Assembly (NCBI GenBank): GCA_039810045.1
Contig: JBDHWF010000003.1
Coordinates: 1,834 to 65,833, forward strand
Direction: 5' to 3'
Length of the DNA stretch: 64,000 bases
From: Chloroflexia bacterium
GTDB taxonomy: Bacteria > Chloroflexota > Chloroflexia > Thermomicrobiales > CADCWN01
The position numbers and the translations under genes were made by a program. The stretch's first letter is position 1; every line of letters starts with the position of its first letter. Below are positions 1,436-35,284 of the stretch, piece by piece. A model generated the notes under the pieces. That model was not told where the DNA came from, did not search any database, and saw nothing but the letters and a program-made list of their open reading frames with translations.

Positions 1436-2309
1436 GATTGTTCAGGTTTCACGACCAATCTCCTGGTTCAATACTGCTTTTCCTTTTGCTGGTGGGGCCT
1501 TCTACACTGGAGTGCCCTTGTCTACACCGCGTAATCTGCTCGGCATCGCCTACTTTACCCTCCCGTACAACCTCGCGCTCTACGGGATCAACGATATCTG
1601 TGACTACCCGTCGGATCGCCTAAACCCACGCAAGAATTCCATTGAAGGAGGCTTACTACCGCCTGACACCCATCAGCGCATGATCAGCCTGATTACTGGT
1701 CTCAATCTGCCTTTCCTCGCCCTACTCATTGCGCAGGGGAATCGCCGAGCCAACACCGTCTTAGGGGTTCTCCTCTTTACGACGTTCGCCTACAGCGCAC
1801 CACCACTGCGCTATAAAGAGATCCCCTTCCTTGATGCGTTTACCTCAGCAACCCATTTCGTCACGCCCTACCTCTATGGCTTAGTCTTCAATCAGACCAA
1901 GCGTTATCCCAAGAGAGAATTGCTTGGCTACACTGCCTGGTGTATGGCCTCGCAAGCATTTGGCGCAATACAGGATATTCCGTTTGACCAAAGCGTTGGC
2001 TCCCAATCAATCGCCACTGTCCTTGGGCCACGCAAGACGGCGCAATTCTCCACGGTTCTTTACTTGCTTACGAGCGTCCTAGCTCTACTTGGGCAGGGCA
2101 ATCGTGGAGCGCGACGACTGGCGGCCCTGGCGATTCTGCCTTACGCGCTCAATACGGCCCTGTATTTACGCGACCCCCAACCTGCCCTGGCTAATCGCTA
2201 CTGGCGACGCTTTATTTGGCTCAATCTGATCACCGGGGCTATCTATACCAATCTGTTGCTCTGGCAAAAACTTCAGACGAAACGATCAACAAAGAAGGAT
2301 AGAGCTTGA
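1416..2309 (+). CDS. UbiA-family prenyltransferase, lycopene-elongase-like (CrtEb/LyeJ-like)
   Basis: 297-aa polytopic protein. UbiA motif 1 is 'NDICDYPSD' (NDxxDxxxD) and motif 2 is 'QDIPFD' (DxxxD). It sits between the cyclase subunits and crtI, overlapping both neighbours. Confidence 0.7.
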   Translation: MALTLREIVQVSRPISWFNTAFPFAGGAFYTGVPLSTPRNLLGIAYFTLPYNLALYGINDICDYPSDRLNPRKNSIEGGLLPPDTHQRMISLITGLNLPFLALLIAQGNRRANTVLGVLLFTTFAYSAPPLRYKEIPFLDAFTSATHFVTPYLYGLVFNQTKRYPKRELLGYTAWCMASQAFGAIQDIPFDQSVGSQSIATVLGPRKTAQFSTVLYLLTSVLALLGQGNRGARRLAALAILPYALNTALYLRDPQPALANRYWRRFIWLNLITGAIYTNLLLWQKLQTKRSTKKDRA

Positions 2310-20831: not shown

Positions 20832-20980
20832 TGGCCGATCCTCCCTGTTTGTCCCACTAGTAGGGCTCTGGTAGAATGTCGTCAATGTCCCGGGAATTCG
20901 GGGTTAGGGAGTAACGACAATAGTGATCTGCAACGCTCACGCTGGTGGCAGATCGATATGGGTACGAGGAGTCACCAGCG

Positions 20981-21955
20981 ATGCTCGATGCCGCAAACCG
21001 TAAGGGGACGAAGAACGGCGCAGTCGCAACCACATTAGATATTGCCACGCATACCACCCACGAAACACCTGATCTGATCGCTGTTGGCTGGCGACAAAGT
21101 GTTGCGGACTATATTGCGCTGACCAAGCCCAAGATTATCTCCTTGCTGCTGATTACCACGCTCGGCGCAATGATGATCGCAGGCGACGGCTTTCCATCTG
21201 TGTGGATCGTCTTGTGGACGTTACTGGGCGGCGCACTCGCCTCTGGTGGGGCTGGCGCAATCAACCACTTCATTGATCGTGACATTGACAAGAAAATGGG
21301 GCGCACCAAAGGTCGTCCGGTCGTCAATGGTCGCGTGCAACCGTGGCAGGCGCTCACCTTCGGGATCGCGCTAGAAGTCGCCTCGTTCACGCTCCTGACC
21401 CTGGCAGTCAATCTGCTCAGTGCCATTCTGGCGCTCGGTGGGTTCCTGTTCTATGTCGTGATCTACACCCTTTGGCTCAAGCGCACCACGCCGCACAATA
21501 TCGTGATTGGCGGGGCGGCTGGCGCATTTCCGCCCCTGGTTGGTTGGGCGGCCGCTACTGGTTCGCTCTCTCTCGGGGCATGGATTCTCTTTGCCATTAT
21601 CTTCTTCTGGACCCCACCCCATTTCTGGGCGCTGGCACTGCTGATTCGTGGCGACTATGAACGAGCGAACGTGCCAATGTTGCCAGTTGTGCGCGGGGTG
21701 GAGGAAACACGCAAGCAGATCCTGATTTACACCATCATCATGATCGCCACCACCCTACTCCTGGTAGCCGTTGGTACCAGTGGCTGGCTCTATCTGGTTC
21801 TCGCGCTTGGTTTGGGGGGCTGGTTCCTCTATGATGCCATTCTCCTCCTGCGTGAGCAGACCCAGCGCGCCGCCCGCCGCCTCTACCTGTACTCTTTACT
21901 CTACCTGGCACTGCTCTTTCTGGCGATGGTAATCGACCACGCCTTCATCGCCTAA
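20981..21955 (+). CDS. ctaB: Protoheme IX farnesyltransferase (heme O synthase)
   Basis: A UbiA-family protein with 'NHFIDRDIDKKMGRTKGRP' and 'FFWTPPHFWALA'. The ATG at 20981 has GAGGAG 9 nt upstream, and the ORF is open from GTG 20945. Confidence 0.88.
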   Translation: MLDAANRKGTKNGAVATTLDIATHTTHETPDLIAVGWRQSVADYIALTKPKIISLLLITTLGAMMIAGDGFPSVWIVLWTLLGGALASGGAGAINHFIDRDIDKKMGRTKGRPVVNGRVQPWQALTFGIALEVASFTLLTLAVNLLSAILALGGFLFYVVIYTLWLKRTTPHNIVIGGAAGAFPPLVGWAAATGSLSLGAWILFAIIFFWTPPHFWALALLIRGDYERANVPMLPVVRGVEETRKQILIYTIIMIATTLLLVAVGTSGWLYLVLALGLGGWFLYDAILLLREQTQRAARRLYLYSLLYLALLFLAMVIDHAFIA

Positions 21956-21974
21956 CGGTGTTTGCCTACACGAC

Positions 21975-22009
21975 AATAGGTGGGGGCACTAGTAGTGCCC
22001 CCACCTATT
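21975..22009. terminator. Bidirectional terminator-like hairpin between convergent ctaB and copCD
   Basis: A perfect 15-bp palindrome, aataggtgggggcac-tagta-gtgcccccacctatt. Confidence 0.55.
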
Positions 22010-22060
22010 TGTTCTGCCAACCTTGCCGATATCATCTGGCGGAGCTTTGGCCCTCTGCTG

Positions 22061-24349
22061 CTATGGTATCGGTGGTTCAATCGGTGGGATTGCATTGAAG
22101 TCGCTATAAGTACTCTCCATATAATGCCCCACGCTGAACATTCGCTGCCGCCGCACCAGATTATCATCGACCCCGATCCAGAACGTCATCCGGCTGCCAC
22201 TTGGCACATCAAGGAAACTAACCACCCAACACGGCGTACCAGCAATCGTTTCGCGCCCCAATAACGTCACTTCATTGGAGATACTGGCATTATCGAAGAT
22301 CGGCCAGCGATAGCCCGCAGGTTCCGGCCACACACTTTGCACCCAATTCCCACCCGCTGGGCGATCATACCGCTGCTTCCCGACCACGATTGTTTCGCTA
22401 CCAGCCTCTGAGCGCAGGTGCATGCGGTTTGGCGCGACCCACTGGTAATCCGTCGTAATGGGCGCACCGCTACCAGTGATCGTCTGATGTTCGCGCAAAC
22501 CAGTGAGTTGATTCATCGCCAGATCTGATTGTGCCAGTAACGAACGCGCACCACCCGTTGGAAGATCCAGGTTAAACACCGCGCGGTCAGTTCCTCCACC
22601 ACGCGGTGTAACCAACGCTTCGAGTTGCCAATGCCCCGGTTTACCAAGTTCCCCCAACCCCGTATAGCGACCATCCCGCGCTACCAATGGCACCTCTTGC
22701 GGAACCGCCCCATTTGTAGCGGTGAGCCGCAACGTCACAGCAGCATCAGTGAGGCTACCCCCAGCAGAATCTTGCAACGTCACATTCAGCACGGCTGGGC
22801 CAGTGGTCGTTGGTCCAATTGTCAGCGTTACCAGGGTTGGCCCCGCGTTCATTGCCAGCGTCACACTATCAGCAATAGTGGTGTTGGCAGGCGCACTGGC
22901 TGGCGCATCAGCGCTGACGACAGTACGAGCGGGTGGTAATGCCGTCAACAAGCCAACGACCAGCAATACCACCATCCCTATCGTCATTTCACCCCAGAGG
23001 GTCTGCCATAAACGCTGTATTGTCTGCGCCGTCGGCGCATTCGTCTCCCGCACTAGTCGTGGCAGAATCCAGAAGCGATTCATTGCGGCGAACCCCAGCA
23101 ACGGCACCAGGAGGAGGAGTTTCACCAGCAGCGTTCCACCATAGAGGCTTTGCCCCAACGCCAGTGGGCCATCAACGTGGACCCAGGTTTGGTAAAAGCC
23201 AGTCACGATAAGCAGTTGAATGGCAACAAGGGCCAGCGCCGAAAAACGCAAAATGATCCGCAGCAGCGTCTTGAACTGTGCTGTCACTGGTAATGCCCGA
23301 ATCATCCGCGGCAGAACCAGGGCGAGTATCAGCACCCCACCAAGCCAAGCTGACGAGGCCACAAGATGAACCCAATCGACCAGAATTGACAGCAGGATTG
23401 GGTCGGTCGTGGCCGCATGGCCGCTGATACTCGTTACGAGGGCATAGGCCAACCCCGCGATCAATAGCAATAACCAGGCGCGCTGCCCGCTGAGTGAGGC
23501 AATCGGCTCCTCGTCGGCAGCGCGTAGCTCCAACTCAGCACTGAGAATGGGCAAGGTCAGGGCTGGCGCAATCAGAAGGGCTAATCGACTCAGCCAGAGC
23601 GTGCCAAAGCGCCCGGTCAAGGCCCCAAGCAGATTCCCTGGCTGGAGAAACTCGCTGCCACCACCAAAGGCGCTGGCATAGGCGGCACTGATCAACAGGC
23701 AGAGCTGACCAAGGACAACAAGGCCAAATGCCAGCCAGATCCAGCGCACAATCGTTGGTTCAAAAAGGGTGAGGAAGTCATCATAACGCGACCGCTGCCG
23801 CGCTGGCGTGAACAGCAGCAGGCTGAGCCGGAAGGCCAGCGGCCCCAGCCAGAGACTCAGCCCCAGGAGAATTAATCCCCGGGCCAGCGCCTGGAGTAGC
23901 AGGGGTGGGGTCAAACCCGTTGGTTCAGTTTCGGCTGTGCCTAAGAGCAAATCTGCCGGAGCTACCCCCACCCCAAACCGAAACTCTCCAGTGACTGGAT
24001 GGGTATCTGCTGATACCAGCGCATAACGCACGGTATAGACTCCAGTTGAGAGTTCAGGCAGAGAAACCGCCACCGAGAGCGGATCATTGGGGGCAGCGTG
24101 GGCATCGCGCCGATCCACGCGCCGCCCGCCAGTGTCAGTTACGGCGATCTTATCGGCGCGAACCTCCACCCGCTCATTAAATGTCAGGCGCACCTCGCCA
24201 ACCGTTGCCGCCACCACAGTACCAGCCGCAGGTTGGGTCCGTTGCAAAAAGGCGTGGGCAGAAACAAGCGTTGGTGTCAACAGCACACCAGCGGCAAGCA
24301 CCAGGCCAAGCAGAAACCCCAGCACCCACTGTAAATGCCGAATATTCAA
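22061..24349 (-). CDS. CopC-CopD fusion copper transport/resistance protein with extra C-terminal extracytoplasmic domains (YcnJ-like)
   Basis: After a signal peptide comes 'HAFLQRTQPAAG...YALVSADTHPVTGEF' (CopC), then about 8 TM helices (CopD). A beta-rich 'GRYTGLGELGKPGHWQLEALV' module (YtkA/FixH-like) follows, plus about 170 further residues. Confidence 0.75.
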   Translation of the reverse strand: MNIRHLQWVLGFLLGLVLAAGVLLTPTLVSAHAFLQRTQPAAGTVVAATVGEVRLTFNERVEVRADKIAVTDTGGRRVDRRDAHAAPNDPLSVAVSLPELSTGVYTVRYALVSADTHPVTGEFRFGVGVAPADLLLGTAETEPTGLTPPLLLQALARGLILLGLSLWLGPLAFRLSLLLFTPARQRSRYDDFLTLFEPTIVRWIWLAFGLVVLGQLCLLISAAYASAFGGGSEFLQPGNLLGALTGRFGTLWLSRLALLIAPALTLPILSAELELRAADEEPIASLSGQRAWLLLLIAGLAYALVTSISGHAATTDPILLSILVDWVHLVASSAWLGGVLILALVLPRMIRALPVTAQFKTLLRIILRFSALALVAIQLLIVTGFYQTWVHVDGPLALGQSLYGGTLLVKLLLLVPLLGFAAMNRFWILPRLVRETNAPTAQTIQRLWQTLWGEMTIGMVVLLVVGLLTALPPARTVVSADAPASAPANTTIADSVTLAMNAGPTLVTLTIGPTTTGPAVLNVTLQDSAGGSLTDAAVTLRLTATNGAVPQEVPLVARDGRYTGLGELGKPGHWQLEALVTPRGGGTDRAVFNLDLPTGGARSLLAQSDLAMNQLTGLREHQTITGSGAPITTDYQWVAPNRMHLRSEAGSETIVVGKQRYDRPAGGNWVQSVWPEPAGYRWPIFDNASISNEVTLLGRETIAGTPCWVVSFLDVPSGSRMTFWIGVDDNLVRRQRMFSVGHYMESTYSDFNAIPPIEPPIP

Positions 24350-24506: not shown

Positions 24507-25019
24507 ATGACGACACGAACAACCGCGAATGCACAAGCAAAGAACACCATCCACTCGTCAGAGAATGGGGATCGCGTCATTACGACCAATCGTCAGGCGC
24601 GGTTTGAGTATACGATCCTGGAATCAATGGAAGCAGGGATCGCGCTGACTGGTACCGAGATTAAATCGGTGCGTGGTGGTCACGCCAATATCCGCGATAG
24701 TTATGCGCGCATCGAAGCTGGAGAACTCTGGCTGATCAATATGCACATTGCACCCTACGATCAGGCCGGTAGCTACTATCAACACGACCCGATTCGCCCC
24801 AGGAAACTGTTGGTACACCGCCGCGAAATCGCCCGCCTCAAAGCGGAACTCGGGCAAAAGGGACTGACCTTAGTCCCCCTGCGCCTCTATCTCAAACGTG
24901 GCCGTGCAAAAGTAGAAATTGGGCTGGCACGCGGGAAGAAGCTCTATGATAAGCGCGATGCGCTGGCCGAGCGTGACGCCAAACGTGATATTGAGCGCAG
25001 CCTCCGCAATCGCGAGTAG
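24507..25019 (+). CDS. smpB: SsrA-binding protein
   Basis: 'NRQARFEYTILESMEAGIALTGTEIKSVR' and 'LVPLRLYLKRGRAKVEIGLARGKK' are present. The gene lies directly upstream of the tmRNA gene. Confidence 0.93.
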   Translation: MTTRTTANAQAKNTIHSSENGDRVITTNRQARFEYTILESMEAGIALTGTEIKSVRGGHANIRDSYARIEAGELWLINMHIAPYDQAGSYYQHDPIRPRKLLVHRREIARLKAELGQKGLTLVPLRLYLKRGRAKVEIGLARGKKLYDKRDALAERDAKRDIERSLRNRE

Positions 25020-25030
25020 AACATTGGTGC

Positions 25031-25059
25031 TTGCAGTGACCGCAGAGATCATCTATCAT
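25031..25059 (+). promoter_or_regulatory. Candidate sigma-70 promoter for ssrA
   Basis: TTGCAG (25031-36), a 17-nt spacer, and TATCAT (25054-59), lying 22 nt before the mature tmRNA 5' end. A small leader hairpin ggtgac-ctc-gtcacc lies between them. Confidence 0.4.
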
Positions 25060-25081
25060 TAAGCGGTGACCTCGTCACCCT

Positions 25082-25431
25082 GGGGATGTCTGGTTTCGAC
25101 AGGGACGTAGGCGAGGGAATTGCAGGCCGAGGCGCCCGGGTTCCTCGTAAAAACGGGCAATGCCATAACTGGCAACACCGAATACGCTCTGGCTGCCTAG
25201 GTAGCCACGTCCGCGCAGTCCCCACCCCAACGGGATTGTAGTCGGGCGTCACAAAGTTGGGGTGCTGCATTGCCGACTGCGGGCTGAGCAATGCCTAAGA
25301 CCAGCCCACTAGCGCACTAGAGAGGCTGTCGAGAGTCGCTCGGTGAGCAAAAACTAAAATCTCGACTATGTCTGTAGGATATTCCCCGTTGAACTTTCTG
25401 GACGGGGGTTCGACTCCCCCCATCTCCACCA
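25082..25431 (+). ncRNA. ssrA: tmRNA (transfer-messenger RNA)
   Basis: The 5' GGGGAUG pairs with the 3' CAUCUCC, including the G3:U wobble, followed by A-CCA. The T-arm is GGGGGUUCGACUCCCCC. The internal tag ORF ends ...AAC ACC GAA UAC GCU CUG GCU GCC UAG (..NTEYALAA*, 25162/25171-25200); the resume codon is uncertain (GCC or GGC). Confidence 0.95.
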
Positions 25432-26014: not shown

Positions 26015-26215
26015 ATGAACCTGACTGCGATTGAGATTGTTGTTCGGCGTATTTTCAGCGATGCTGAGTTCCGCGCACGAGCGCTGGCAAATCCAACAAC
26101 GGCGCTTGCTGAATATCAGCTTGCTGCTGCTGAACAGCAAGCATTGACGAAGCTGTGCCTACGCATGGCTGATGGGCAGAACGCGGTTGTCCCGAACTTT
26201 TACTGGTGGCTCTAG
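26015..26215 (+). CDS. 66-aa putative RiPP/pheromone precursor peptide (ComX-like: helical leader plus C-terminal ...NFYWWL)
   Basis: A strong SD, AAGGAG at 26003-26008, lies 6 nt before ATG 26015. The sequence is MNLTAIEIVVRRIFSDAEFRARALANPTTALAEYQLAAAEQQALTKLCLRMADGQNAVVPNFYWWL. The N-terminal 50 aa resemble helical leader peptides (DxxFRxxxxxxPxxALxEY). It lies immediately upstream of a prenyl-synthetase-fold gene. Confidence 0.6.
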   Translation: MNLTAIEIVVRRIFSDAEFRARALANPTTALAEYQLAAAEQQALTKLCLRMADGQNAVVPNFYWWL

Positions 26216-26290: not shown

Positions 26291-27190
26291 GTGCCCGATA
26301 CAGAACGGTTCGCTATTGTCAGGCAGCTACTCGAAGAGGCAGTGGAGCGCACGCCGCTCCCCGCCTCTTCTCAGCCGTTTCTCCGTATTCCCCTACAGCA
26401 GCCAGGAAAACTTCTCGGCGGTGCAGAACAACCACTTTGGCCAGCCACCGTCTTGGCCGTTTGTGCCGCAAGTGGTGCCGATCAGCGGCTCGGCAGTAAA
26501 GTTGCGGCGGCAGTCGAACTCTTTATGGCCAGTCTCGATATTCTCGATGAGCTTGAAGATGGTGATCGGTCACCGCTTGCGGAAACAGTTGGCCCCGCAC
26601 GTGCCCTCAATATTTCCACGATGCTTCTCTTTCTGGCCCAAAGCTTGCTTCAGAGTTTACACGAAGATGGTTTACCAGCAGAACGAGTTCTACAACTGAC
26701 CAAAACGCTTACTACGTTTGGCATCGAAGCAACTGTTGGACAAGATCGCGATTTACAAAGTGCCAATGCCGAAGCTCTTTCGTATGACGAAGCCCTGACG
26801 ATTGCCCAGATGAAAGCGGGCGCATTAGTCGCGTGTGCTTGTACGATCAGTGCCCTGCTTGCCACCGATGACCCATATCTGCTCAAACTCTATGGTGACT
26901 GGGGCAGACATTACGGCACCGCCGCGCAACTGGCGAATGATTTACATGACGCAACAAATGCCAACAAGAGTGATCTGGCCCAACAAAAAGGAACACTGCC
27001 ACTCCTCTACGAGCGCACGACGAATGACGGGGCTGTATCCCCGCCCGCCGTAGCAACAAGTGGCGCACTTCATTTTACCTGGGTAGTGCTAGAAATGGAA
27101 CGGCAACAGTGTGCCGAGCTTGCGACCATGCTGACAGCACACGGACAGGCGGCAAGGCATTTACAAACCTTACCTGGGGCAGTTGAGTGA
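26291..27190 (+). CDS. Polyprenyl-synthetase-fold protein with degenerate Asp-rich motifs (ComQ-like putative peptide prenyltransferase)
   Basis: 299 aa; GTG start with GAGGAG 9 nt upstream. The family landmarks 'GQDRDL', 'KAGAL' and 'KSDLAQQKGTLPLL' are present. However, the first Asp-rich motif is 'LDILDELEDGD' and the second is 'AQLANDLHD' (NDxxD) instead of DDxxD. Confidence 0.65.
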   Translation: MPDTERFAIVRQLLEEAVERTPLPASSQPFLRIPLQQPGKLLGGAEQPLWPATVLAVCAASGADQRLGSKVAAAVELFMASLDILDELEDGDRSPLAETVGPARALNISTMLLFLAQSLLQSLHEDGLPAERVLQLTKTLTTFGIEATVGQDRDLQSANAEALSYDEALTIAQMKAGALVACACTISALLATDDPYLLKLYGDWGRHYGTAAQLANDLHDATNANKSDLAQQKGTLPLLYERTTNDGAVSPPAVATSGALHFTWVVLEMERQQCAELATMLTAHGQAARHLQTLPGAVE

Positions 27191-30100
27191 TCACGACGAG
27201 CCAACCACCTCATCGATCAACACTCCACCCCGCCAGACCATTTCGGCTGGCATTATTCATCCTGATCCCAATCTTCATTGCCTGTCTCATTGTTGCCCAG
27301 CATGATGCAAAGCGTGCGCCTACTCTGGGGATAACGGTCACGCAAACCGAGCTAGGTGGCCCCTGGCTCGTCAGTAACGTGTCCTTTGGGAGCAGAGCCA
27401 ACTATCTGGGCATTGAGCCTGGGAATCAGATAGTACGCATTGACGGTAATGCGGTACAACGGGATCAGGCACCAGATCCTGTACTGATTCAGCAAGCGAC
27501 CCAACTGGTTATTACGAATGCCGATGGTTCAAAAACACGCACCTTCGATCTGGCTGGATTACAGTCAGGACCATTGAATCTAACCCCCTATCTGGTGATG
27601 AGCACCATCTTCTTCACTGTGGGGTTTATTACGCTATTGTTTGGTCAAGGGGCAGCACCGCGTGCGCTAGCCCTCCTCACCATGAGTGGGGCACTTGAAG
27701 CAGTCGCCATCCCCCTGAGCTTACGGGCAACAAACTGGGCGATTATTGCGAATGGGGTCTGTGTTCCCATCTTTATTGGTAGCTTCGCCTATCTCTTTCT
27801 TGTATTCCCGCGTCGCCGTCTGTTGCACGTCGGAAAGAAGCGCTTTCCACCAGAGTTAATCCTGCTGCCGATCATTCCCACCTTCATTACATATATGTTC
27901 TCTATCGCGACAAGTCATGCCGCAGTTATTATGGTTGGCCGAGTACTGGGCTACCCCTACTTCCTCGCTTGCTTTATCGGGGGGATTCTGGCCCTGATCC
28001 TCAGTTGGCGACAAGCACGCCCAGGGCGTGAAAAGACCCAACTCCGTACAGTAACGCTGGCAAGTATCGCCGCAATCACGCCATTTCTCTTGATCAACTT
28101 CTTCCCTCAGATCACCTTTGGCAATACCTTCCTCTCCGCCGACTACACGATCTTGCCTATGGCCTTAATTCCCCTCGCGTTCGGCTACGCCATCTTGCGT
28201 TATCAACTGATGAATATGCACCTCTATCTGCGGCGTGGGGTTGGCTATTCGATTCTTGGGGTTGGCATTACGGGAGTCTACACCTTAGGGCTGGCGATTG
28301 CCTCCATTACTATTCGTAACCAAACGGCCAGTAGTTTGCTCATCACGGCAATCATGATGACTATCGTCGTGCTGCTCGGCGACCATCTCCGTACAAAAAT
28401 CCAACACCATGTTGATCATCTCTTTGACCGTAAGGGGTATGACTATCGCCGCCAATTACTTGAGTTTAGTCAGCAGATGAATACGATCCTTGATCCTGAT
28501 GAACTTGCCGAATCAACCGTTGGCCTGATCGAACAGACCATGAGTTCATACTATGTGCGGCTGTATATCTACGACCGCGCAACCAGCACCTTCCACCTTT
28601 GGGCGCATGCAGGGACGCCCGTACCAAGCACCGAGCAAACACTGCCCCCTGAACACCCCACCAGTATGAAGATGCGCAACGCTGGCTGGGAAATTGTGCA
28701 ACATCTGGAAGTACAAGCTGATCAAGATGTTCTACTTGTACCACTGACCAATAAAGGCCAACCAGTCGCTATGCTTGTCCTGGGCGCAAAGCGATCAGAA
28801 CTGCCATATTCAAGCGAAGACCTTGTCTTGCTCAGTACTGTCGCCAGCCAACTGGCGATCTCGACGGAAAACGCCCAACTGTATGGGCGAATGCGCGATC
28901 TCTACCTCTCTGGGATTCGCACACTCGCAGCAACGGTTGATGCCAAAGATTCCTATACCCACGGTCATTCCGAGCGGGTCGCGGGGTATGCCCGCGCCCT
29001 GGCGATCGCGCTGAATTTGCCACAAATCGAAGTCGAAACCATTGAATTAGCGGGGTTATTGCACGATATTGGCAAAATTGGTATTCCTGATGCGGTACTC
29101 CAAAAACCTGGAAAGCTCGCCCCAGATGAACGGGCATTGATCGAACAGCACACCGAAATTGGGGCCCGGATCCTCGCTGATAATCCTGCGCTCCAGGCCC
29201 TTGTTCCGCTTGTACGGCATCATCACGAACGCTGGGACGGCAAAGGATATCCTGATCAGCTTCGTGGTGAAGCGATTCCCCTGGGGGCAGCAATTATCTG
29301 CGTGGCCGACACATTCGACACAATGACGACCAACCGCCCATATCGTCAGGCACCAGGATATGAACAAGCCTACCTGGAAATCCTGCGCCAGCGTGGGCAG
29401 CAATTTTCTCCTCGGGTGGTCGAGGCATTTATTCGGGTCGACTTTTCTCAGGGCAACTGCTCGACAGCAAACCAAAAAACCACTGCGCTACAGTCGCGGA
29501 TGGCCCTGGCGGAACAAGCTACTGCTACCAACAACCGCGCAATGCGCATTGTCTATCAAATTGCCCAACTGCTGAGTACCGCCAAAGAGTTAGATGTGTT
29601 CTTACAACGGGTGATCGAACTCTTACAAAATGAACTTGCGACCAATACTGTTGACTTCTTCATTATCGATGAAGAAACACAAACGCTCTACAATCGCCCC
29701 AGTACGCAAAGTAGCTTAGGCCAAATACAGCTTCCACTCGGCCAAGGTCTGGTAGGCTGGGTTGCTCAGCACCAGACGGCTGTCTGTATTGATGATATTC
29801 GCACTGATGATCGCGCAGTGATTGCGAACGGTTGGGATGGCCGAGCAGAACTCGCTGTGCCTCTGATTAGCAGTGGGAAGACGATTGGCGTACTGAATGT
29901 TGAGAGTACGCGCGTGGCCGCATTCACCGATGAGGACACCAAACTCCTGACCATCATTGCGGGACAACTGGCCCAGGTTATTGAAGTGACACAATTACAT
30001 CTGGACGCCCGTAAGGCCGCAGGCCTCGATAGCCTCACCAAGATTGCCAATCATCGGCAATTTTACAACCGTCTGGAAATGGCAATCGCGGCAACCCAAC

Positions 30101-30564
30101 AGCACCACAGTGCCCTGGCCCTCGCCATTATCGATGTTGATAACCTGAAATATATCAACGATACCTTTGGTCATTTAGCAGGTGATTCTGTTCTCTATAC
30201 GCTGGCTCAACACCTTGAAGCCCACGCCCAGGCTGAGGAATTTGTCGCGCGCTACGGTGGTGATGAGTTTGCAATCATCTTCCCCAACACCACTGATACC
30301 CAAGCAAAAGCACGAATCGAGGCACTCAGGGTCTACCTGCAAGAAGCGGCAACGCTCACAATCGACAATCAACAATTACCCCTCCCCGAACTCTCGGTAG
30401 GCGTTGCTGCTTTTGATCCAGAAACGATGACCCTGAGTGCGCTGATCAACGCTGCCGACAAAAAGATGTATGAACAGAAACGCGCCCACCGCAAGCACCG
30501 ACAACGCCCAACTCCGCCAGCAAGCCCCTTGGCAATTACTACGCCAATCGCCTATGATCGATAA
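27187..30564 (+). CDS. Polytopic membrane receptor: TM, PDZ-like loop, multi-TM, GAF, HD-GYP, GAF, GGDEF (c-di-GMP turnover)
   Basis: 1125 aa with a GTGA overlap with the upstream gene. aa 20-40 form a TM helix. aa ~60-125 'GIEPGNQIVRIDGNAV' are PDZ-like. aa ~130-400 carry about 9 TM helices ending in 'AILRYQLMNMHLYLRR'. The HD-GYP domain has 'HGHSERV', 'LLHDIGK' and 'HHERWDGKGYP' (aa ~575-750). The GGDEF domain has 'RYGGDEFAIIF' (aa ~945-1100). GAF-like modules flank the HD-GYP domain. Confidence 0.85.
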   Translation: MITTSQPPHRSTLHPARPFRLALFILIPIFIACLIVAQHDAKRAPTLGITVTQTELGGPWLVSNVSFGSRANYLGIEPGNQIVRIDGNAVQRDQAPDPVLIQQATQLVITNADGSKTRTFDLAGLQSGPLNLTPYLVMSTIFFTVGFITLLFGQGAAPRALALLTMSGALEAVAIPLSLRATNWAIIANGVCVPIFIGSFAYLFLVFPRRRLLHVGKKRFPPELILLPIIPTFITYMFSIATSHAAVIMVGRVLGYPYFLACFIGGILALILSWRQARPGREKTQLRTVTLASIAAITPFLLINFFPQITFGNTFLSADYTILPMALIPLAFGYAILRYQLMNMHLYLRRGVGYSILGVGITGVYTLGLAIASITIRNQTASSLLITAIMMTIVVLLGDHLRTKIQHHVDHLFDRKGYDYRRQLLEFSQQMNTILDPDELAESTVGLIEQTMSSYYVRLYIYDRATSTFHLWAHAGTPVPSTEQTLPPEHPTSMKMRNAGWEIVQHLEVQADQDVLLVPLTNKGQPVAMLVLGAKRSELPYSSEDLVLLSTVASQLAISTENAQLYGRMRDLYLSGIRTLAATVDAKDSYTHGHSERVAGYARALAIALNLPQIEVETIELAGLLHDIGKIGIPDAVLQKPGKLAPDERALIEQHTEIGARILADNPALQALVPLVRHHHERWDGKGYPDQLRGEAIPLGAAIICVADTFDTMTTNRPYRQAPGYEQAYLEILRQRGQQFSPRVVEAFIRVDFSQGNCSTANQKTTALQSRMALAEQATATNNRAMRIVYQIAQLLSTAKELDVFLQRVIELLQNELATNTVDFFIIDEETQTLYNRPSTQSSLGQIQLPLGQGLVGWVAQHQTAVCIDDIRTDDRAVIANGWDGRAELAVPLISSGKTIGVLNVESTRVAAFTDEDTKLLTIIAGQLAQVIEVTQLHLDARKAAGLDSLTKIANHRQFYNRLEMAIAATQQHHSALALAIIDVDNLKYINDTFGHLAGDSVLYTLAQHLEAHAQAEEFVARYGGDEFAIIFPNTTDTQAKARIEALRVYLQEAATLTIDNQQLPLPELSVGVAAFDPETMTLSALINAADKKMYEQKRAHRKHRQRPTPPASPLAITTPIAYDR

Positions 30565-30629: not shown

Positions 30630-31220
30630 GTGCCCCGTAAACCCAAAGCAGCCCAACCAGCCCAGGCCGCCCCACTGGCCGAACCGATCGTCGCCGAGCC
30701 AGCCCCAGAGCGCGGGATGTCGCACATTGACGAAACATTGGTCAACATGGTTGCAGCGCAAGCATCGGCAAGCGCCATGCAAGCCACTACCGAAGATACG
30801 ACTGAAGAACCGCTCGATCCGTTTGCCACATTTTGGACCGAGCTTGATCTCCACTGTCGCGACTGCCAGATTATTCACTATGTACCAATCTGCCTCTTTC
30901 TCAATGCTGAAGAATCGCCCGCCCTGGTACAGCGGATTATTTCTGGTCATTTCAACAACAAACGCTGCCCAGTCTGCCACAAAATCGAGTTTGTCGAACA
31001 CCCCTATAGCTTCTACGATCCCGCCCGAAAGCTCATCGTGCAAGTACGCCCAGAATGGGAATGGCACGCAGGCGGCGGGGACGAATGGTATGCCGCCCGC
31101 CTCGAAGATCTTTTCGATAAGTGGGCTGAATACGATGTCCAGATTGAAGTGGTCTTTGGTCAGCAACAACTGATTGATCGCTTCCTCCAGGCAGTCTCAC
31201 CACCACCTGCTCGTCGCTGA
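30630..31220 (+). CDS. CpXC-domain protein (uncharacterised zinc-ribbon-like)
   Basis: GTG start with GAGGAG 6 nt upstream. It has an acidic/Ala-rich N-terminus, then 'CRDCQ...' and 'CPVCH' Cys pairs about 50 aa apart, as in CpXC proteins. The nearly co-extensive antisense ORF 30603..31169 has no motifs. Confidence 0.55.
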   Translation: MPRKPKAAQPAQAAPLAEPIVAEPAPERGMSHIDETLVNMVAAQASASAMQATTEDTTEEPLDPFATFWTELDLHCRDCQIIHYVPICLFLNAEESPALVQRIISGHFNNKRCPVCHKIEFVEHPYSFYDPARKLIVQVRPEWEWHAGGGDEWYAARLEDLFDKWAEYDVQIEVVFGQQQLIDRFLQAVSPPPARR

Positions 31221-31569: not shown

Positions 31570-33318
31570 ATGAGTGTCCCATTTCGCCTTCGCGTCAGTA
31601 GCGGACCAAATGCCGGAGAGAGCTTCATCCTCACCGACAATGGGGCAACCATTGGGCGGCAAGATGGCAACACTATCGTTCTCGACGATAGTCGCTTATC
31701 GCGCCAACACGCCCGCATTGATCTCGGCCCTGGTGGGCTCACTTTAACCGATCTTGGCTCCGCTAATGGTACCCTGGTCAATGGGCAGCGAGTCAGTGGC
31801 ACCCGAATCTTGCAACGCGGCGACCAGATTCAGCTTGGGGAGACGACGCTGATCCTTGAAGGAGGGGCACCGGCGAACAATCGTCTCGCCACGGTGGTAC
31901 CAAAGCCCGAAAATATCGTTACCACCCCTATCTCGGCGAATGCTGCTCGCTTAGTACAGCAAGTGGGTGGGCAAATCTACCCATTGAACCAGCCCGAAAT
32001 CGTTATTGGGCGTGAGGTAGGCGCGGAAATCGCCCTTGATGATTCCCAGATATCGCGTCGCCACGCCCGCCTGACGATAACGGGGAATACCGTCACCATC
32101 GCTGATCTTGGCTCAGCAAACGGTACGTTCGTCAACGGCAGGAAGATCGCTGGCCCAACTTCATTACAAGAAGGCGATCGGATCCGTATTGGTACCCACG
32201 ATTTTCGGATCGAGGGTCTGGCGCCCCCTGCCACGGCACCGCAACTAGCAGATGCGAACGATGCCACAGTCGCAGGGATCGCGCCTTTCCCTGCCGCTAC
32301 ACCGCTCAGGCCACTCCCGCCAGCAGGCACTGCCCCCTTACCGCCGCTAGGCAACGCGCCGGGGCCACCAGCCTTTGGGGCTAACCAACCGTCATTAGCG
32401 CCTGGACAGCCCTGGAATCCTCCAGCATCGCCATACGGCTCGGTGGGGATGCCCCCACCATCACCCGCAAAACGCCGTTCAACCTCACCGATCCTGATCG
32501 GCGGTTGTGTAGTTCTCTTCCTGTTACTCTGTATCGGCGGCGGCATTGGCGGGGCAGTCGTCATCCGTAACCGTAACAACGACGCCACCCCAACCGTGGT
32601 GACGAATAGCACTGCTGTCCCAGGCGGCGGTGGCAGTAACCCCGCCCCATCACCACCAACCCCTGGCGGTGCGCTACCGCCCACCACTCAGCCAACGGCG
32701 ACGCTAGTTGCCCTCTTGCCGCCAACCACGCCCACAGCACCGGCAACGGCAACGTCAGCGCCGCTTCCCACATTGGCGGCACCGCCACCAACAACTGCGC
32801 CAACTCGCCGCCCGACCAATCAGGTCGCGCCAACGGTGGCGGCTACCCGTCCACCAGCGAACGGCAACACCACGATTACAGTTGATGCAGTGGGGTTGAC
32901 GTTCATCTTACCTACTGGTTGGACCCAGGAACGGGATGAGGCGGGCCAGGCCACCTTTCTGGCCCCAGACCAACGCGCGCAAATTACCGTACGGTGGAGC
33001 CAACAGGCCCCTGCGGGGCTGACCGCCCAACGGTTGATTCAGGATGAATTACAGCGAACTGCTAATGAAGATAGTAGCTTCGTCCCCAGCAACACCCAAA
33101 TCGGCGCGCTCACCTTTGGCGGGCACCCCGGCTATGGTTCGGAACCATATACCTACAATCTGCAAAGCGGTACGCGCCTGACTGAAGCTGACCGTGCTGT
33201 CGTACTCAGCGGGCGCGCCCAATACTTCTTTGGATTTACTGCCATTGCCACAGATTTTGATCGTTATCGATCGATCTTCGATAGTATCATCAATACTGTC
33301 GTCATTACTGGCCCTTAA
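31570..33318 (+). CDS. Double-FHA-domain membrane protein with extracytoplasmic C-terminal domain
   Basis: It has two FHA modules ('IGRQDGNTIVLDDSRLSRQHARI...GSANGTLVNG' and 'IGREVGAEIALDDSQISRRHARL...GSANGTFVNG'). A Pro-rich linker, the TM 'ILIGGCVVLFLLLCIGGGIGGAVVI', a PT-rich spacer and a ~150-aa globular C-terminus follow. Confidence 0.85.
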   Translation: MSVPFRLRVSSGPNAGESFILTDNGATIGRQDGNTIVLDDSRLSRQHARIDLGPGGLTLTDLGSANGTLVNGQRVSGTRILQRGDQIQLGETTLILEGGAPANNRLATVVPKPENIVTTPISANAARLVQQVGGQIYPLNQPEIVIGREVGAEIALDDSQISRRHARLTITGNTVTIADLGSANGTFVNGRKIAGPTSLQEGDRIRIGTHDFRIEGLAPPATAPQLADANDATVAGIAPFPAATPLRPLPPAGTAPLPPLGNAPGPPAFGANQPSLAPGQPWNPPASPYGSVGMPPPSPAKRRSTSPILIGGCVVLFLLLCIGGGIGGAVVIRNRNNDATPTVVTNSTAVPGGGGSNPAPSPPTPGGALPPTTQPTATLVALLPPTTPTAPATATSAPLPTLAAPPPTTAPTRRPTNQVAPTVAATRPPANGNTTITVDAVGLTFILPTGWTQERDEAGQATFLAPDQRAQITVRWSQQAPAGLTAQRLIQDELQRTANEDSSFVPSNTQIGALTFGGHPGYGSEPYTYNLQSGTRLTEADRAVVLSGRAQYFFGFTAIATDFDRYRSIFDSIINTVVITGP

Positions 33319-33335
33319 TAGATCAGGATTATTTT

Positions 33336-35255
33336 ATGAGTGATAGTACTACCACAGCAGATTCATTTGATAATCGTAACCAGATTGGCGCAGGGCAGGA
33401 AGAAACTGCGCACGCCCGCGGCGGCCTCACGGCAACAGCCTTTGGGCTCAGTGATATTGGCTGCCAGCGCTCGGTCAATCAGGATACCCTCGGTAATCGG
33501 CTCAGTCAGTTTCCCACCCAACTCCATGATCGGGGATTACTCTATGCCATTGCTGATGGAATGGGCGGCCATGCCCACGGCGAGATCGCCAGTGCCCTCG
33601 CGATCGACGAACTGTTCACCCGCTTCTATCAGATCGATCCCAGTCTCCCGCCACAAACAGCCCTGACCCAGGTGATGCAAGAACTGAATGCTGCGGTGCA
33701 TCAGGCGGGGCGGGATGCGGGCGGCGGATCGATGGGTACCACGCTGACGATAGTGCTCTTACGCGATAACATCCTCTATGTTGGCAACATTGGCGACAGT
33801 CGCACCTATCTAATTCGGGGCGGGAAGATCAAGCAACTGAGCCAGGATCATTCGCTGATCGGTGAGCAAATACGCAGCGGTACCCTGACCGAAGCCGACG
33901 CCCGTACCAGTGCAATTCGTAATGTGATTACCCGGGCGGTTGGCTATCGAGAAACTGTCGAACCAGAAACGTTTGCGTTTACCGTCCACCCCGGCGACAT
34001 CCTCTTACTCTGCTCGGATGGCTTGCATGGCCTGGTCGAAAATGAGGAACTGGCGCAAATCCTGAGTACACAAACGCTATCAGACGCCACAACCAACTTG
34101 ATCGCCCTGGCGCGTGAGCGTGGCGGGCCAGATAATATTACCGCACTCGTAGTGCGTGTCGATCAGCTTGGTGCAGCAGGCACGGCCAACGCCACACAGC
34201 AGATTACTGCCAGTGATAGTGACGCTGCTGATGACGCCACCAAGCCAATGCCAATGATCGCGCCAGATCGTACCGAAGAGATCCTCCTCCCAGCAACCGA
34301 AAATGAAGAGCAAGCAGCAACAACACTCCCAATGATCACCACACCAAAAGCTGCCCCCAATGCTCCAAGGCCAACAGTAGCCCCAGCGTCAATGCCCGCA
34401 CCAGCCCCAACCGTCGCCGATCTCGCCCGTCCAGCAGCCCGCCCGCCGCTCTGGCTGTTTATCGTGATCCCATTACTGTTAATCGGGCTGATTGCGGCGG
34501 GAGTGTTGCTCTTTACGCGAAACCTAAACACGACACCAACGCCTCCAGCAGTTGTTACGGTAGTGGCTACAGCAACGGTAGCACCAGCACCCTCGGCCAC
34601 GGCTGCTGTCGCCACTGCACCAGTTGTCGCTGCTGGCAGTATTGCGCCGACCGCACAACCAACTGCCACCTTACCCCCCAAAACACCACCAGCCAGCGCC
34701 CCAGCACAATCTAGCGGCGGCAGTAACCCCGCCGCCCCGATAGTACCGCGTCCCAATACTCCCTCAGCGATAGCAGCCGGGAATAGTGGGGCAACGCAAC
34801 GGATCAAGGTAAGCGGCACCGTGCGCTTTGCCGAAACACTAGCGATTCCCGCAGGATTCCCAAATGATTGGGCAGTATTGCTCTATGCACAACGTGACTT
34901 TCAGCAGCAACAGCAGGCGGCCCCAATCAAAGCACAATCCGCACTAACAGTCCTCCCCTTTCGCGAAGAGTACGGGTTTGTCCTTGATCTTGAGCTTGCC
35001 ACTGGGAATCAACAAGGAGAGCTATTCACCATTCAGCTACAGGATCTGGAAAATGACCAAATCGCCGTACTTGATCCCGGTGAGATTCGCATCGATCGCA
35101 CTGGTCGCCCAATTACTGTGCGCGTAACCAGTATTACTGAGCAACCAGAACCTCGGCCATCAGGCAACGTATCGCCGCGCACGCCAGCGATCTTCCTCAC
35201 AGACGACAAGATTCAGCGCGCTGTAGCAGTATTCCTACAGCAAGTCAGGCGCTAA
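33336..35255 (+). CDS. PP2C-family Ser/Thr phosphatase, membrane anchored
   Basis: 'YAIADGMGGHAHGEIAS', 'LLLCSDGLHG' and 'GGPDNITALVV' are present. The TM 'LWLFIVIPLLLIGLIAAGVLLF' and an extracytoplasmic A/P/T-rich region plus domain follow. Confidence 0.88.
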   Translation: MSDSTTTADSFDNRNQIGAGQEETAHARGGLTATAFGLSDIGCQRSVNQDTLGNRLSQFPTQLHDRGLLYAIADGMGGHAHGEIASALAIDELFTRFYQIDPSLPPQTALTQVMQELNAAVHQAGRDAGGGSMGTTLTIVLLRDNILYVGNIGDSRTYLIRGGKIKQLSQDHSLIGEQIRSGTLTEADARTSAIRNVITRAVGYRETVEPETFAFTVHPGDILLLCSDGLHGLVENEELAQILSTQTLSDATTNLIALARERGGPDNITALVVRVDQLGAAGTANATQQITASDSDAADDATKPMPMIAPDRTEEILLPATENEEQAATTLPMITTPKAAPNAPRPTVAPASMPAPAPTVADLARPAARPPLWLFIVIPLLLIGLIAAGVLLFTRNLNTTPTPPAVVTVVATATVAPAPSATAAVATAPVVAAGSIAPTAQPTATLPPKTPPASAPAQSSGGSNPAAPIVPRPNTPSAIAAGNSGATQRIKVSGTVRFAETLAIPAGFPNDWAVLLYAQRDFQQQQQAAPIKAQSALTVLPFREEYGFVLDLELATGNQQGELFTIQLQDLENDQIAVLDPGEIRIDRTGRPITVRVTSITEQPEPRPSGNVSPRTPAIFLTDDKIQRAVAVFLQQVRR

Positions 35256-35284
35256 ACGACAGCAACATTCTGCATATTGAGGTC

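Follow-up and report, generated by a model that had tools for sequence, protein, structure and literature searches.

In the ComQXPA system of Bacillus and its relatives, the genes of which follow the order Q-X-P in Bacillota, the enzyme ComQ (InterPro IPR033965) combines an acidic first motif with a Q-x-x-N-D pseudo-second motif, ComX is a short peptide whose leader is conserved, whose tail varies and in which a single Trp is essential, and the ComX receptor ComP joins a membrane input module (TM1 followed by a PDZ-like loop) to a HisKA_3/HATPase kinase output, with a ComA-type response regulator as a further component. The PalQ/PalX/PalP system of Paenibacillus alvei (PMC10853753) likewise consists of a Trp prenyltransferase with isoprenoid-synthase fold, an NHLP-type Trp precursor and a sensor; PalX carries a conserved Trp at or near its terminus, and P. 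alvei PalQ needs this Trp to be strictly C-terminal. In the Chloroflexota, the ComQ homologue StheQ of Sphaerobacter thermophilus prenylates the penultimate Trp of an adjacently encoded peptide (bioRxiv 10.64898/2026.08.29.745113, August 2026). According to the same preprint, StheQ forms a stable complex with the full-length peptide and modifies it, residues D85 and D89 are Mg2+ ligands, and 98% of the activity is lost upon the exchange N215D; the biological role of the peptide, StheX, is stated to be unknown, and no mention is made of c-di-GMP domains, of a receptor or of a leader of NHLP type.

The window analysed here, a stretch of 64,000 nucleotides from a Chloroflexia bacterium (contig JBDHWF010000003.1), contains a conserved three-gene cassette on its plus strand, encoding a 66-aa precursor, a prenyltransferase and a 1125-aa membrane sensor. 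The order is X-Q-P rather than Q-X-P, and where ComQXPA has a ComA-type response regulator, this cassette has neither a kinase domain nor an adjacent response regulator; protease or exporter genes are not encoded within it. The enzyme at 26291-27190 very probably attaches a lipid tail to a Trp near the end of the peptide encoded upstream. Taken alone, it is another member of the class formed by ComQ, PalQ and StheQ, while a pheromone system of ComQXP type with c-di-GMP as its output, which the cassette may represent, appears not to have been described so far.

The enzyme gene (26291..27190, plus strand) starts with GTG, has a GAGGAG Shine-Dalgarno sequence 9 nt 5' of the start, and encodes 299 residues, which, on the basis of Pfam, the family alignment and an AlphaFold2 model, were assigned to a predicted peptide tryptophan prenyltransferase of ComQ/StheQ type with trans-isoprenyl-diphosphate-synthase fold. 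The sequence-only reading had proposed a polyprenyl-synthetase fold, which was borne out by a Pfam polyprenyl_synt score of 57.5 bits (cut-off 27) and by the model itself (all-alpha, pLDDT 91.4), whose closest PDB structures were those of GGPP synthases and of Ord1, which prenylates indole (TM-scores 0.73-0.80); the strings it had quoted (AAAVELF, LDILDELEDGDRSPL, GQDRDL, KAGAL, AQLANDLHD and KSDLAQQKGTLPLL) are all present in the translation. The protein is a genuine member of this fold and no chance match.

Membership in this fold raises the question of an ordinary short-chain isoprenyl diphosphate synthase with unusual motifs, making GGPP or FPP for carotenoid or quinone biosynthesis. Such an enzyme would agree with the public annotation of the homologues as geranylgeranyl pyrophosphate synthase, with the best PDB and NCBIfam matches being ordinary synthases, and with the UbiA-family and phytoene-desaturase-like genes at 1.4-3.8 kb of the window. 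The scores speak against it, as all NCBIfam synthase models remained far under their cut-offs (e.g. 67 against 450), and so does the genomic context, where the constant companions of the gene are those for a Trp-peptide and a sensor, and not isoprenoid genes. The window contains no other IDS-like ORF, which would favour this alternative; as a second, ordinary synthase was not found within the window, the argument from housekeeping duty can be used in neither direction. Considering also the active-site differences given below and the demonstrated peptide prenyltransferase activity of the homologue StheQ, we regard an ordinary synthase as very improbable.

The first Asp-rich region of the putative peptide prenyltransferase reads D83-I-L-D86-E-L-E-D90-G-D92 (26537..26566, plus strand) and is not followed by RRG; it was delineated from conserved residues, the alignment with the canonical synthase 3nf2 and the ComQ motifs. 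In this alignment, the canonical DDxxD corresponds to D86-E87-x-x-D90 and is essentially kept, the RRG has disappeared with a deletion of five residues, and the N-terminal GKxxR of IPP binding is replaced by Q47...W50. The pseudo-second motif, Q213-L-A-N216-D217-L-H-D220 (26927..26950, plus strand; from conserved residues, ComQ motifs and the alignment with Ord1), departs from DDxxD solely at the first Asp, which is N216, an Asn that is invariant in the family. The proposal that both Asp-rich motifs are remodelled therefore holds for the second one, with N216 in place of the first Asp, and fails for the first one, whose DExxD is functionally retained although the RRG is lost. Across 17-20 homologues, D83, D86, D90, D92, G150, Q151, D154, K175, Q213, L214, N216 and D217 are invariant, as is a C-terminal GALHFTW; the unusual motifs are conserved and not sporadic. 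Canonical FPPS and GGPPS (IPR000092), in contrast, have DDxxD with RRG, FQxxDDxxD and GKxxR, of which the enzyme lacks the RRG, the GKxxR and the first SARM Asp.

For comparison with ComQ, four sequences were taken from annotated comQXPA loci. Their first sites read DIIDDLEDEDNRD, DIIDDLQDKD, DLLDDLVDQD and DIIDDIQDED, next to DILDELEDGD in the enzyme, and pseudo-second sites QIKNDIQ, QIDNDFD and QLLNDAID, next to QLANDLHD, so that Q-x-x-N-D is common to the enzyme and three real ComQs. Both features that the sequence-only reading had ascribed to ComQ, an acidic first motif and the lack of a canonical second DDxxD, are thus found in real sequences. By comparison with the four ComQs and 3nf2, the enzyme shows the ComQ-type combination of a retained FARM, a degenerate SARM (Q-x-x-N/G-D) and an absent RRG.

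Whether the enzyme aligns more closely to ComQ than to GGPP synthases, as had been suggested, depended on the method. An HMM of the enzyme family scored the four ComQs at 110, 99.5, 99 and 61 bits, the last being B. velezensis ComQ, while the best ordinary synthases among 5.8 billion proteins reached 64-94 bits; three of the four ComQs (99-110 bits) hence score higher than any of these. Profile-profile alignment with hhalign related the family to ComQ with a probability of 99.7% and a score of 180, well above the score of ComQ against ordinary synthases (110), but the family aligned to ordinary synthases with a score of 207, about as near as to ComQ. Single-sequence searches with the enzyme favoured ordinary synthases over ComQ, and when 7.3 Gb of plasmids were searched by tblastn, a ComQ was joint first among the matches. 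ComQ and the enzyme are homologous with an identity of only ~24%. Overall, these comparisons did not refute the ComQ-like reading of the enzyme, which is supported by the motifs and the HMM scores. Weak relatives in cyanobacteria were considered as instances of the same system and rejected, as they have no peptide or sensor neighbour.

The closest functional reference is StheQ, which shares the phylum, the fold and the catalytic residues with the enzyme. Its residues D85, D89, D153, K174, Q212, N215, D216, D219 and A167 correspond to D86, D90, D154, K175, Q213, N216, D217, D220 and A168, with identical spacing and a constant offset of +1; the presumed orthology is based on these matching residue numbers and on substrate features, not on a direct alignment. 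StheX resembles the precursor encoded here in size (~66-69 aa) and in having a Trp second from the C-terminus, with WWx in both. Two differences were noted: the first motif of StheQ is reported as DDxxD and is DExxD here, and stheX is described in the preprint as 'immediately downstream' of stheQ, whereas the precursor gene here lies upstream of the enzyme gene. The chemistry has been demonstrated, by others, solely for the homologue StheQ; we hold prenylation of a peptide Trp to be highly likely as the reaction of the enzyme.

The relation to PalQ is one of organisation, with sensor, NHLP-type Trp precursor and isoprenoid-synthase-fold Trp prenyltransferase in both cassettes. For the enzymes themselves, comparison with a PalQ homologue from a Paenibacillus cellulosilyticus replicon detected no similarity (hhalign probability 0.6%, HMM 4.6 bits), and PalQ keeps a DDxxD-like second motif, unlike the enzyme described here. 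Ord1 and XiaM (PDB 9V4G-J; PMC12510300) are nearer: they share the fold, are top matches in sequence and structure, bind the donor by the first motif, and possess a conserved Gln one turn ahead of the pseudo-second motif, with Q213 of the enzyme pairing with the catalytic Q216 of Ord1 in the alignment. Their pseudo-motif, however, reads DDxxA, and they belong to small-molecule pathways, where free indole is the substrate, with neither a peptide partner nor a sensor. The resemblance to Ord1 could be read to mean that the enzyme, like Ord1 and XiaM, prenylates a small molecule (free indole or tryptophan), or that it is a terpene synthase, with the small ORF being irrelevant. Further biosynthetic genes are absent nearby, the small ORF is conserved with a penultimate Trp in 23/24 peptides, and StheQ stably complexes and modifies its full-length peptide. 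We regard this reading as extremely improbable.

The 66-aa peptide ORF to which the sequence-only reading had referred was located at 26015..26215 (plus strand), with an AAGGAG Shine-Dalgarno sequence 7 nt ahead of the ATG. From sub-threshold leader matches and synteny, it was assigned as a StheX-like precursor, comprising an NHLP-like leader (~1-54, ending in ...MADG) and a 12-residue core, QNAVVPNFYWWL, with the C-terminus YWWL. The precursor gene was found directly 5' of the enzyme gene in 26 loci, here 75 bp upstream. Trp65, the penultimate residue (codon 26207..26209, plus strand), is the predicted prenylation site, given that Trp occupies position -2 in 23/24 distinct homologous precursors and in the substrate described in the StheQ preprint; besides the YWWL here, the termini at different loci include GFWL and SAWF. 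Among the homologues, identity is 0.62 in the conserved leader and 0.17 in the hypervariable core. The individual leader matches lie below the respective cut-offs, with 28.3 bits for Pfam Frankia_peptide (PF14407; cut-off 48), 35.9 bits for NCBIfam NF038399 (cut-off 40) and 23.5 bits for TIGR04509 (cut-off 34); homologous precursors are labelled Frankia_peptide by precomputed Pfam, and hhalign related the leader weakly to PalX-type NHLP leaders (E 5e-5, 68% probability). A ComX-like leader, as implied by the comparison with ComQ, had to be rejected, as the hhalign score of 7.3 equalled that of the reversed control and Pfam PF05952 gave no match; the leader probably belongs to the NHLP clan instead. 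In its general layout the precursor is like ComX, a small peptide with conserved leader, variable tail and one essential Trp, and several plasmid-borne ComX peptides also have the Trp at -2.

A regulatory RNA or attenuator at the cassette was likewise rejected: Rfam yielded no riboswitch, and the spacer between peptide and enzyme genes folded no better than shuffled sequences (z = -0.27). The sole Rfam match was a tmRNA at 25082-25431. Promoter and terminator scans gave counts at background level.

Directly downstream, the candidate receptor is encoded at 27187..30564 (plus strand; identified from the ORF, Pfam and its conserved position next to the enzyme). Its GTG start overlaps the TGA stop of the enzyme gene (GTGA). 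The N-terminal part (27187..28401, plus strand) is an input module of ComP type according to hhalign, consisting of TM1, an extracytoplasmic PDZ-like loop (~aa 40-130) and a polytopic region that ends in a conserved GYAILRYQLMNMHLYLRRG helix. It is followed, all on the plus strand, by a first GAF domain (28492..28872; Pfam GAF_3, aa 436-562), an HD-GYP domain (28927..29418; Pfam HD_5, 130.5 bits, aa 581-744) with intact HD and HHERWDGKGYP, predicted to be a c-di-GMP phosphodiesterase, a second GAF domain (29584..29985; Pfam GAF_2, aa 800-933) and a GGDEF domain (30025..30495; Pfam GGDEF, 137.6 bits, aa 947-1103) with intact RYGGDEF, predicted to be a diguanylate cyclase; an RxxD inhibitory site upstream of the GGDEF is absent. 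The GAF-HD-GYP-GAF-GGDEF output thus takes the place of the HisKA_3/HATPase kinase of ComP.

Against ComP N-termini, the input module aligned over 376-382 columns with hhalign probabilities of 96.3-97.5% and E-values of 2e-9 to 5e-12, while reversed, shuffled and unrelated membrane-protein controls scored 10-20, i.e. at background. PDZ matches were weak in both the sensor and ComP, and significant in the Nitrolancea homologue. A relation to PalP was tried and rejected, with an hhalign score of 16; the membrane domain of PalP, a histidine kinase, is of another kind. In a profile search of a representative library, with the sensor sequence of the window alone as the query, the input module was found to be widespread (5643 cluster representatives, mostly on kinases), so that homology to ComP is by itself no proof of peptide sensing.

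The sensor N-terminal module was found directly 3' of the enzyme in all 21 close-clade loci with downstream DNA (21/21), and this pairing is kept although the flanking genes differ. Fifteen of these 21 loci yielded HD-GYP together with GGDEF; in the remaining six, one of the two or neither was detected, in most cases because the sensor gene is cut off by the end of the contig. In a more distant clade, the same enzyme is again paired with this input module, which there is joined to ComP-like HisKA_3 kinases. Within the sensor, divergence is greatest in the extracytoplasmic loop (identity 0.30), and HD-GYP is the most conserved domain (0.79).

These observations bear on a further alternative, in which the peptide is prenylated, yet serves as a RiPP natural product (an antimicrobial or a surface-active lipopeptide, for example), and the c-di-GMP protein next to it, whether co-regulated or regulatory, responds to some other input. 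Leaders of NHLP type typically occur on RiPP natural products without a signalling function, and the leader of the precursor is NHLP-like; the input module of the sensor is generic and found on many sensors; the stated lack of a known role for StheX (bioRxiv 10.64898/2026.08.29.745113) and the enhancement of peptide membrane activity by prenylation (review PMC13290415) also fit. Against this alternative, the coupling of the sensor to the enzyme is without exception, with overlapping codons and across distant clades, while the output domain changes. Moreover, the cassette is made up of precisely the three components found in ComQXP and PalQXP, without immunity or export genes, the input module shares homology with that of the ComX receptor, and a hypervariable core in the peptide alongside a hypervariable loop in the sensor is what diversification into pheromone types looks like. 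We consider the natural-product reading unlikely on this balance. A signalling role of the peptide product through the downstream sensor is, in our judgement, slightly favoured, and a Trp-prenylating enzyme whose peptide product is sensed by the c-di-GMP protein is the best explanation overall and a probable one.

For the proposed mechanism, we assume that an allylic diphosphate, probably farnesyl or geranyl, would be bound via the first Asp-rich motif (D86, D90) and one Mg2+. The residues for binding of isopentenyl diphosphate are lost, and therefore chains would not be elongated. The 66-aa precursor would dock on the enzyme, where the pseudo-second motif (Q213/N216/D217/D220) may position the indole of W65 such that its C3 comes under electrophilic attack; a pyrroloindoline ring would probably close afterwards. 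The NHLP-like leader would then be removed, perhaps after ...ADG, and a short lipidated peptide released, presumably after export, to be sensed by the membrane protein encoded directly downstream in putative translational coupling with the enzyme. As a ComP-type input is fused to HD-GYP and GGDEF, such a signal would alter c-di-GMP turnover instead of feeding a phosphorelay. That the cassette is a pheromone quorum-sensing system in this strict sense, with the prenylated Trp-peptide directly switching the fused HD-GYP phosphodiesterase/GGDEF cyclase, is a proposition to which we assign an even chance.

The nearest conceptual parallel are receptors of the RpfR type (the BDSF receptor of Burkholderia, PAS-GGDEF-EAL), in which the signal receptor itself is a c-di-GMP-metabolising enzyme. 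RpfR is cytoplasmic and senses a fatty-acid signal via its PAS domain, involving neither a peptide nor prenylation; the shared concept contrasts with unrelated sequence and architecture.

Enzymes of the ComQ, PalQ and StheQ class are being developed for site-selective peptide lipidation, and the dozens of natural enzyme-substrate pairs in this family, with varied cores and a fixed Trp-X terminus, constitute a ready specificity panel. c-di-GMP usually decides whether bacteria stay motile or adopt an attached or biofilm lifestyle. If the proposed system is real, a peptide pheromone would be translated straight into a c-di-GMP signal. This would be the first direct link from a peptide to c-di-GMP and, for Chloroflexota, the first cell-cell signalling system to be defined; pheromone types among soil Chloroflexota would be set by the hypervariable core of the peptide and the hypervariable loop of the receptor. 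Because sister clades use kinases, the ComQXP module would then be able to exchange its output domains, making it an ancient, portable module with outputs swappable among HisKA_3 kinases, HisKA kinases and HD-GYP/GGDEF. The proposed system would also provide StheX with the biological role that its discoverers left open, and offer a testable entry to cell-cell communication in the Chloroflexota, a phylum that is abundant, poorly understood and hard to culture.

The enzyme is encoded at 26291-27190 on the forward strand (299 residues; GTG start preceded by GAGGAG), and all strings quoted in the sequence-only reading were found in its translation. It matched Pfam polyprenyl_synt with 57.5 bits (cut-off 27) and stayed far under the cut-offs of all curated NCBIfam synthase models, the best reaching 67 bits against 450. 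A confident AlphaFold2 model built from 17 homologues is all-alpha (pLDDT 91.4, pTM 0.90), and its closest solved structures were GGPP synthases of archaea and bacteria and the indole prenyltransferase Ord1, at TM-scores of 0.73-0.80. About 67 close homologues were found at E < 1e-42, from Chloroflexota in every case with a named source. D83, D86, D90, D92, G150, Q151, D154, K175, Q213, L214, N216 and D217 are invariant in this family, as is the C-terminal GALHFTW; the odd motifs are a conserved trait of the family. Both Asp-rich motifs had been described as remodelled, which the alignment to the canonical synthase 3nf2 supports for the second one, at its first residue only (N216 in DDxxD), and not for the first, which is kept as D86-E-x-x-D90. 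In the same alignment, the RRG following the first motif is deleted, and Q47...W50 takes the place of the N-terminal GKxxR.

For comparison with ComQ, a B. subtilis ComQ sequence was used solely as bait, and the sequences compared were four ComQs from annotated comQXPA loci of a plasmid collection. Their first motifs (DIIDDLEDEDNRD, DIIDDLQDKD, DLLDDLVDQD and DIIDDIQDED) all lack RRG, and their degenerate second motifs read QISGDYH, QIKNDIQ, QIDNDFD and QLLNDAID; DILDELEDGD and QLANDLHD of the enzyme follow the same pattern, in agreement with the ComQ-like motifs claimed earlier. BLASTP aligned the enzyme to B. velezensis ComQ with 24.5% identity over 233 residues (E 7e-7). The family HMM scored 110, 99.5, 99 and 61 bits against the four ComQs, versus 94, 81, 81, 80 and 64 bits against the best non-family proteins in a search of 5.8 billion proteins, and tblastn against 7.3 Gb of plasmids placed a ComQ (58 bits) level with an actinobacterial synthase as top match. 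With hhalign, ComQ scored 180 against the family and 110 against canonical synthases, so that by profile comparison ComQ is clearly nearer to the enzyme family than to ordinary synthases, whereas the family itself scored higher with the latter (207) than with ComQ. These scores together place the family between ordinary synthases and ComQ. A PalQ homologue had no detectable similarity to the family (hhalign probability 0.6%, 4.6 bits).

The searches also returned ComQ-like genes, with 31% identity to ComQ and a score of 55 bits to the enzyme, at about 70.7-71.5 kb on each of two plasmids, CP065518.1 and CP031730.1, labelled as Stenotrophomonas rhizophila; a proteobacterium is an unexpected host, and the records may be mislabelled. 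The linear, 23.7 kb Bacillus velezensis 'plasmid' pBV1413 (CP021891.1) carries degQ-comQ-comX-comP-comA with comP split into four ORFs, and resembles frameshifted chromosomal DNA more than a plasmid. The next-best relatives of the enzyme (E ~1e-15) are cyanobacterial, as in a Desmonostoc MAG (L082, 5001-5954), and were ruled out as the same system because they lack peptide or sensor neighbours.

ComQ, PalQ and the P-domain of ChrPC have been classed together as 'trans-IDS-like' prenyltransferases of Trp, Ord1 serving as the structural reference (2026 review, PMC13290415). StheQ and its peptide StheX stem from Sphaerobacter thermophilus, likewise of the Chloroflexota; in StheQ, a single Mg2+ sits at D85 and D89 and the pseudo-second motif holds none, the N215D exchange removes 98% of the activity, and the peptide is bound near A167 (10.64898/2026.08.29.745113). 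All residues named for StheQ are matched in the window's enzyme at a constant offset of +1 (D86, D90, D154, K175, Q213, N216, D217, D220, A168), and the neighbouring precursor ends in WWx, as StheX does; the peptide gene, however, lies downstream of the enzyme gene in the StheQ system and upstream here. Going by this correspondence of residue numbers and substrate features, the two enzymes are very probably orthologous. We consider it highly likely that the enzyme is a peptide Trp prenyltransferase of the ComQ/StheQ type, in which the prenyl diphosphate would be held by one Mg2+ and the first motif, which is retained, and the indole placed by the Q/N/D/D pseudo-motif for modification of W65 of the upstream precursor. 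The initial idea of a ComQ-like peptide prenyltransferase was right, although the StheQ preprint has overtaken it; taken alone, the enzyme is a new member of a kind only just described.

The 66-residue precursor (MNLTAIEIVVRRIFSDAEFRARALANPTTALAEYQLAAAEQQALTKLCLRMADGQNAVVPNFYWWL) is encoded at 26015-26215 on the forward strand, 75 bp upstream of the enzyme, with a good ribosome-binding site (AAGGAG). Its N-terminal part gave sub-threshold matches to leader models of the NHLP clan of RiPPs (Frankia_peptide, 28 bits; Os1348/NF038399, 35.9 bits at a cut-off of 40), weak similarity to PalX (hhalign E 5e-5) and none to ComX (hhalign 7.3). Directly upstream of the enzyme, the leader profile matched in 26 loci, yielding 24 distinct peptides, with Trp in penultimate position in 23 and as last residue in one. 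Within the close enzyme clade, mean pairwise identity is 0.62 for the leader and 0.17 for the 12-20-residue tail, in which the invariant Trp is the exception to hypervariability. Plasmid-borne ComX precursors of Lysinibacillus (L022, 4873-5031), Anoxybacillus (L023, 4883-5038) and Priestia (L024, 4897-5064) end in IWN, YWM and YWK, respectively, and share the penultimate Trp of the Chloroflexota precursors, unlike B. velezensis ComX, which ends in KWDNE, its Trp being the fourth-last residue.

PalQ of Paenibacillus alvei has an isoprenoid-synthase fold, and its three-gene cluster also encodes a histidine kinase and the NHLP-type precursor whose C-terminal Trp it prenylates; a strictly C-terminal Trp is reported as required (PMC10853753). 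In Paenibacillus cellulosilyticus (L021; NZ_CP054613.1, 2745-7168), five genes for PalX-like NHLP precursors lie in tandem after a PalQ-like gene, and a histidine kinase is encoded on the other strand. The precursors all end in Trp-X (TWV, VWI, NWL, VWF, IWT); these homologues may therefore follow a different positional rule.

The sensor gene (27187-30564, forward strand) overlaps the enzyme gene in GTGA, comprising its own GTG start and the TGA stop of the enzyme. In the 1125-residue product, the membrane N-terminus precedes, in this order, GAF, HD-GYP (HD_5, 130 bits), GAF and GGDEF (138 bits) domains, with the catalytic signatures HHERWDGKGYP and RYGGDEF intact. Its first 440 residues consist of TM1, an extracytoplasmic loop that PDZ models match weakly, and a polytopic membrane region; over its whole length, this stretch aligns with the half of ComP that senses the pheromone, the N-terminal one (hhalign probability 96.3%, E 1.8e-9, 376 columns; 97.5% and E 5e-12 with kinase-type Chloroflexota homologues in the profile). 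Scores for this comparison were 75-94, versus 10-20.5 for 20 column shuffles, and controls with reversed ComP (13.5-14.4), the PalP N-terminus (16) and an unrelated polytopic protein encoded in the window (15-19.5) were at background; a plain HMM scored three ComPs at 81, 31 and 29 bits and the controls at -3.5 and -11. In ComP, too, TM1 is followed by a PDZ-like loop, and PDZ_6 matched the Nitrolancea homologue significantly. The polytopic input module of this protein (27187-28506) matched no Pfam family at E <= 1; for two distant homologues, the precomputed annotation is PF16927 (N-terminal 7TM region of histidine kinase). In a representative library it matched 5643 cluster representatives with E <= 1e-3, of which 400 reached <= 1e-10, the top 150 including 56 kinases and 15 proteins with HD-GYP and/or GGDEF. 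Given this wide distribution, the ComP homology supports peptide sensing without proving it.

Related loci were gathered by exact-protein look-ups and scans of species-representative genomes and metagenomes, and surveyed with purpose-built profiles. In 21 of 21 close-clade loci with downstream DNA (~18 non-redundant), the sensor's N-terminal module lies directly 3' of the enzyme; both HD-GYP and GGDEF were found in 15, and one or neither in the other six, mostly where the contig ends inside the sensor gene. In a more distant clade (L018 from Nitrolancea hollandica, L019 and L032-L075), with enzymes of ~320-370 residues and 30-38% identity, the enzyme is again followed by the same input module, here joined to ComP-like HisKA_3 kinases, GAF-HisKA kinases or, in L041, GGDEF-HD-GYP in reversed order. 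Most of these loci have no leader-profile match; the N. hollandica precursor candidate ends in ...SAEWWVPPPQEPAS. Since flanking genes vary between lineages, conservation of the cassette does not merely reflect shared ancestry of a larger region. That the enzyme is an ordinary GGPP synthase is very improbable, as the IPP-binding residues are missing and both synteny and the StheQ result contradict it; a small-molecule prenyltransferase or terpene synthase is the least probable reading of all.

Just upstream of the cassette lie smpB (24507-25019; Pfam SmpB, 204 bits) and directly adjoining it the tmRNA gene (25082-25431; Rfam RF00023, 174 bits; joint span 24507-25431), and smpB is also upstream in L001, a related locus. 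A CpXC-domain protein (Pfam, 42 bits) is encoded just past the sensor (30630-31220), and in the related locus L004 a CpXC gene also lies 3' of the sensor, with a glyoxalase gene in between, probably as synteny between relatives. Further on (31570-37564, all forward strand), a gene cluster encodes a double-FHA protein whose long tail is rich in Pro, Ala and Thr, together with a PP2C-type phosphatase and a subtilase. The supposed carotenoid operon (1416-3814) consists of a UbiA-family prenyltransferase and a phytoene-desaturase-like amine oxidase; another gene of the UbiA family (238 bits) adjoins that of a CopC-CopD fusion protein (20945-24349). The 64 kb hold no further isoprenyl-diphosphate-synthase-like ORFs.

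Within the sensor, the extracytoplasmic loop is most divergent (identity 0.30) and HD-GYP most conserved (0.79), and the divergence of the loop parallels the hypervariable precursor tail. Judging from synteny, homology and this pattern of variation, we lean towards the processed lipopeptide being an extracellular signal, which the translationally coupled ComP-type sensor would read and its HD-GYP and GGDEF domains would turn into a change in c-di-GMP; a prenylated RiPP with a non-signalling role is an unlikely alternative explanation of the same cassette. A receptor, a kinase, GGDEF and an NHLP leader are all absent from the StheQ preprint, in which the biological role is given as unknown (10.64898/2026.08.29.745113). 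In the literature searched, we found no mention of the conserved three-gene cassette, its NHLP-like leader, the Trp-X terminus that stays invariant over dozens of loci or, as the main novelty, a ComP-type receptor with c-di-GMP output, the sister clades having kinase outputs. For the Chloroflexota, the cassette may represent a direct pathway from peptide pheromone to c-di-GMP with distinct pheromone types, a reading for which we hold the balance to be even.
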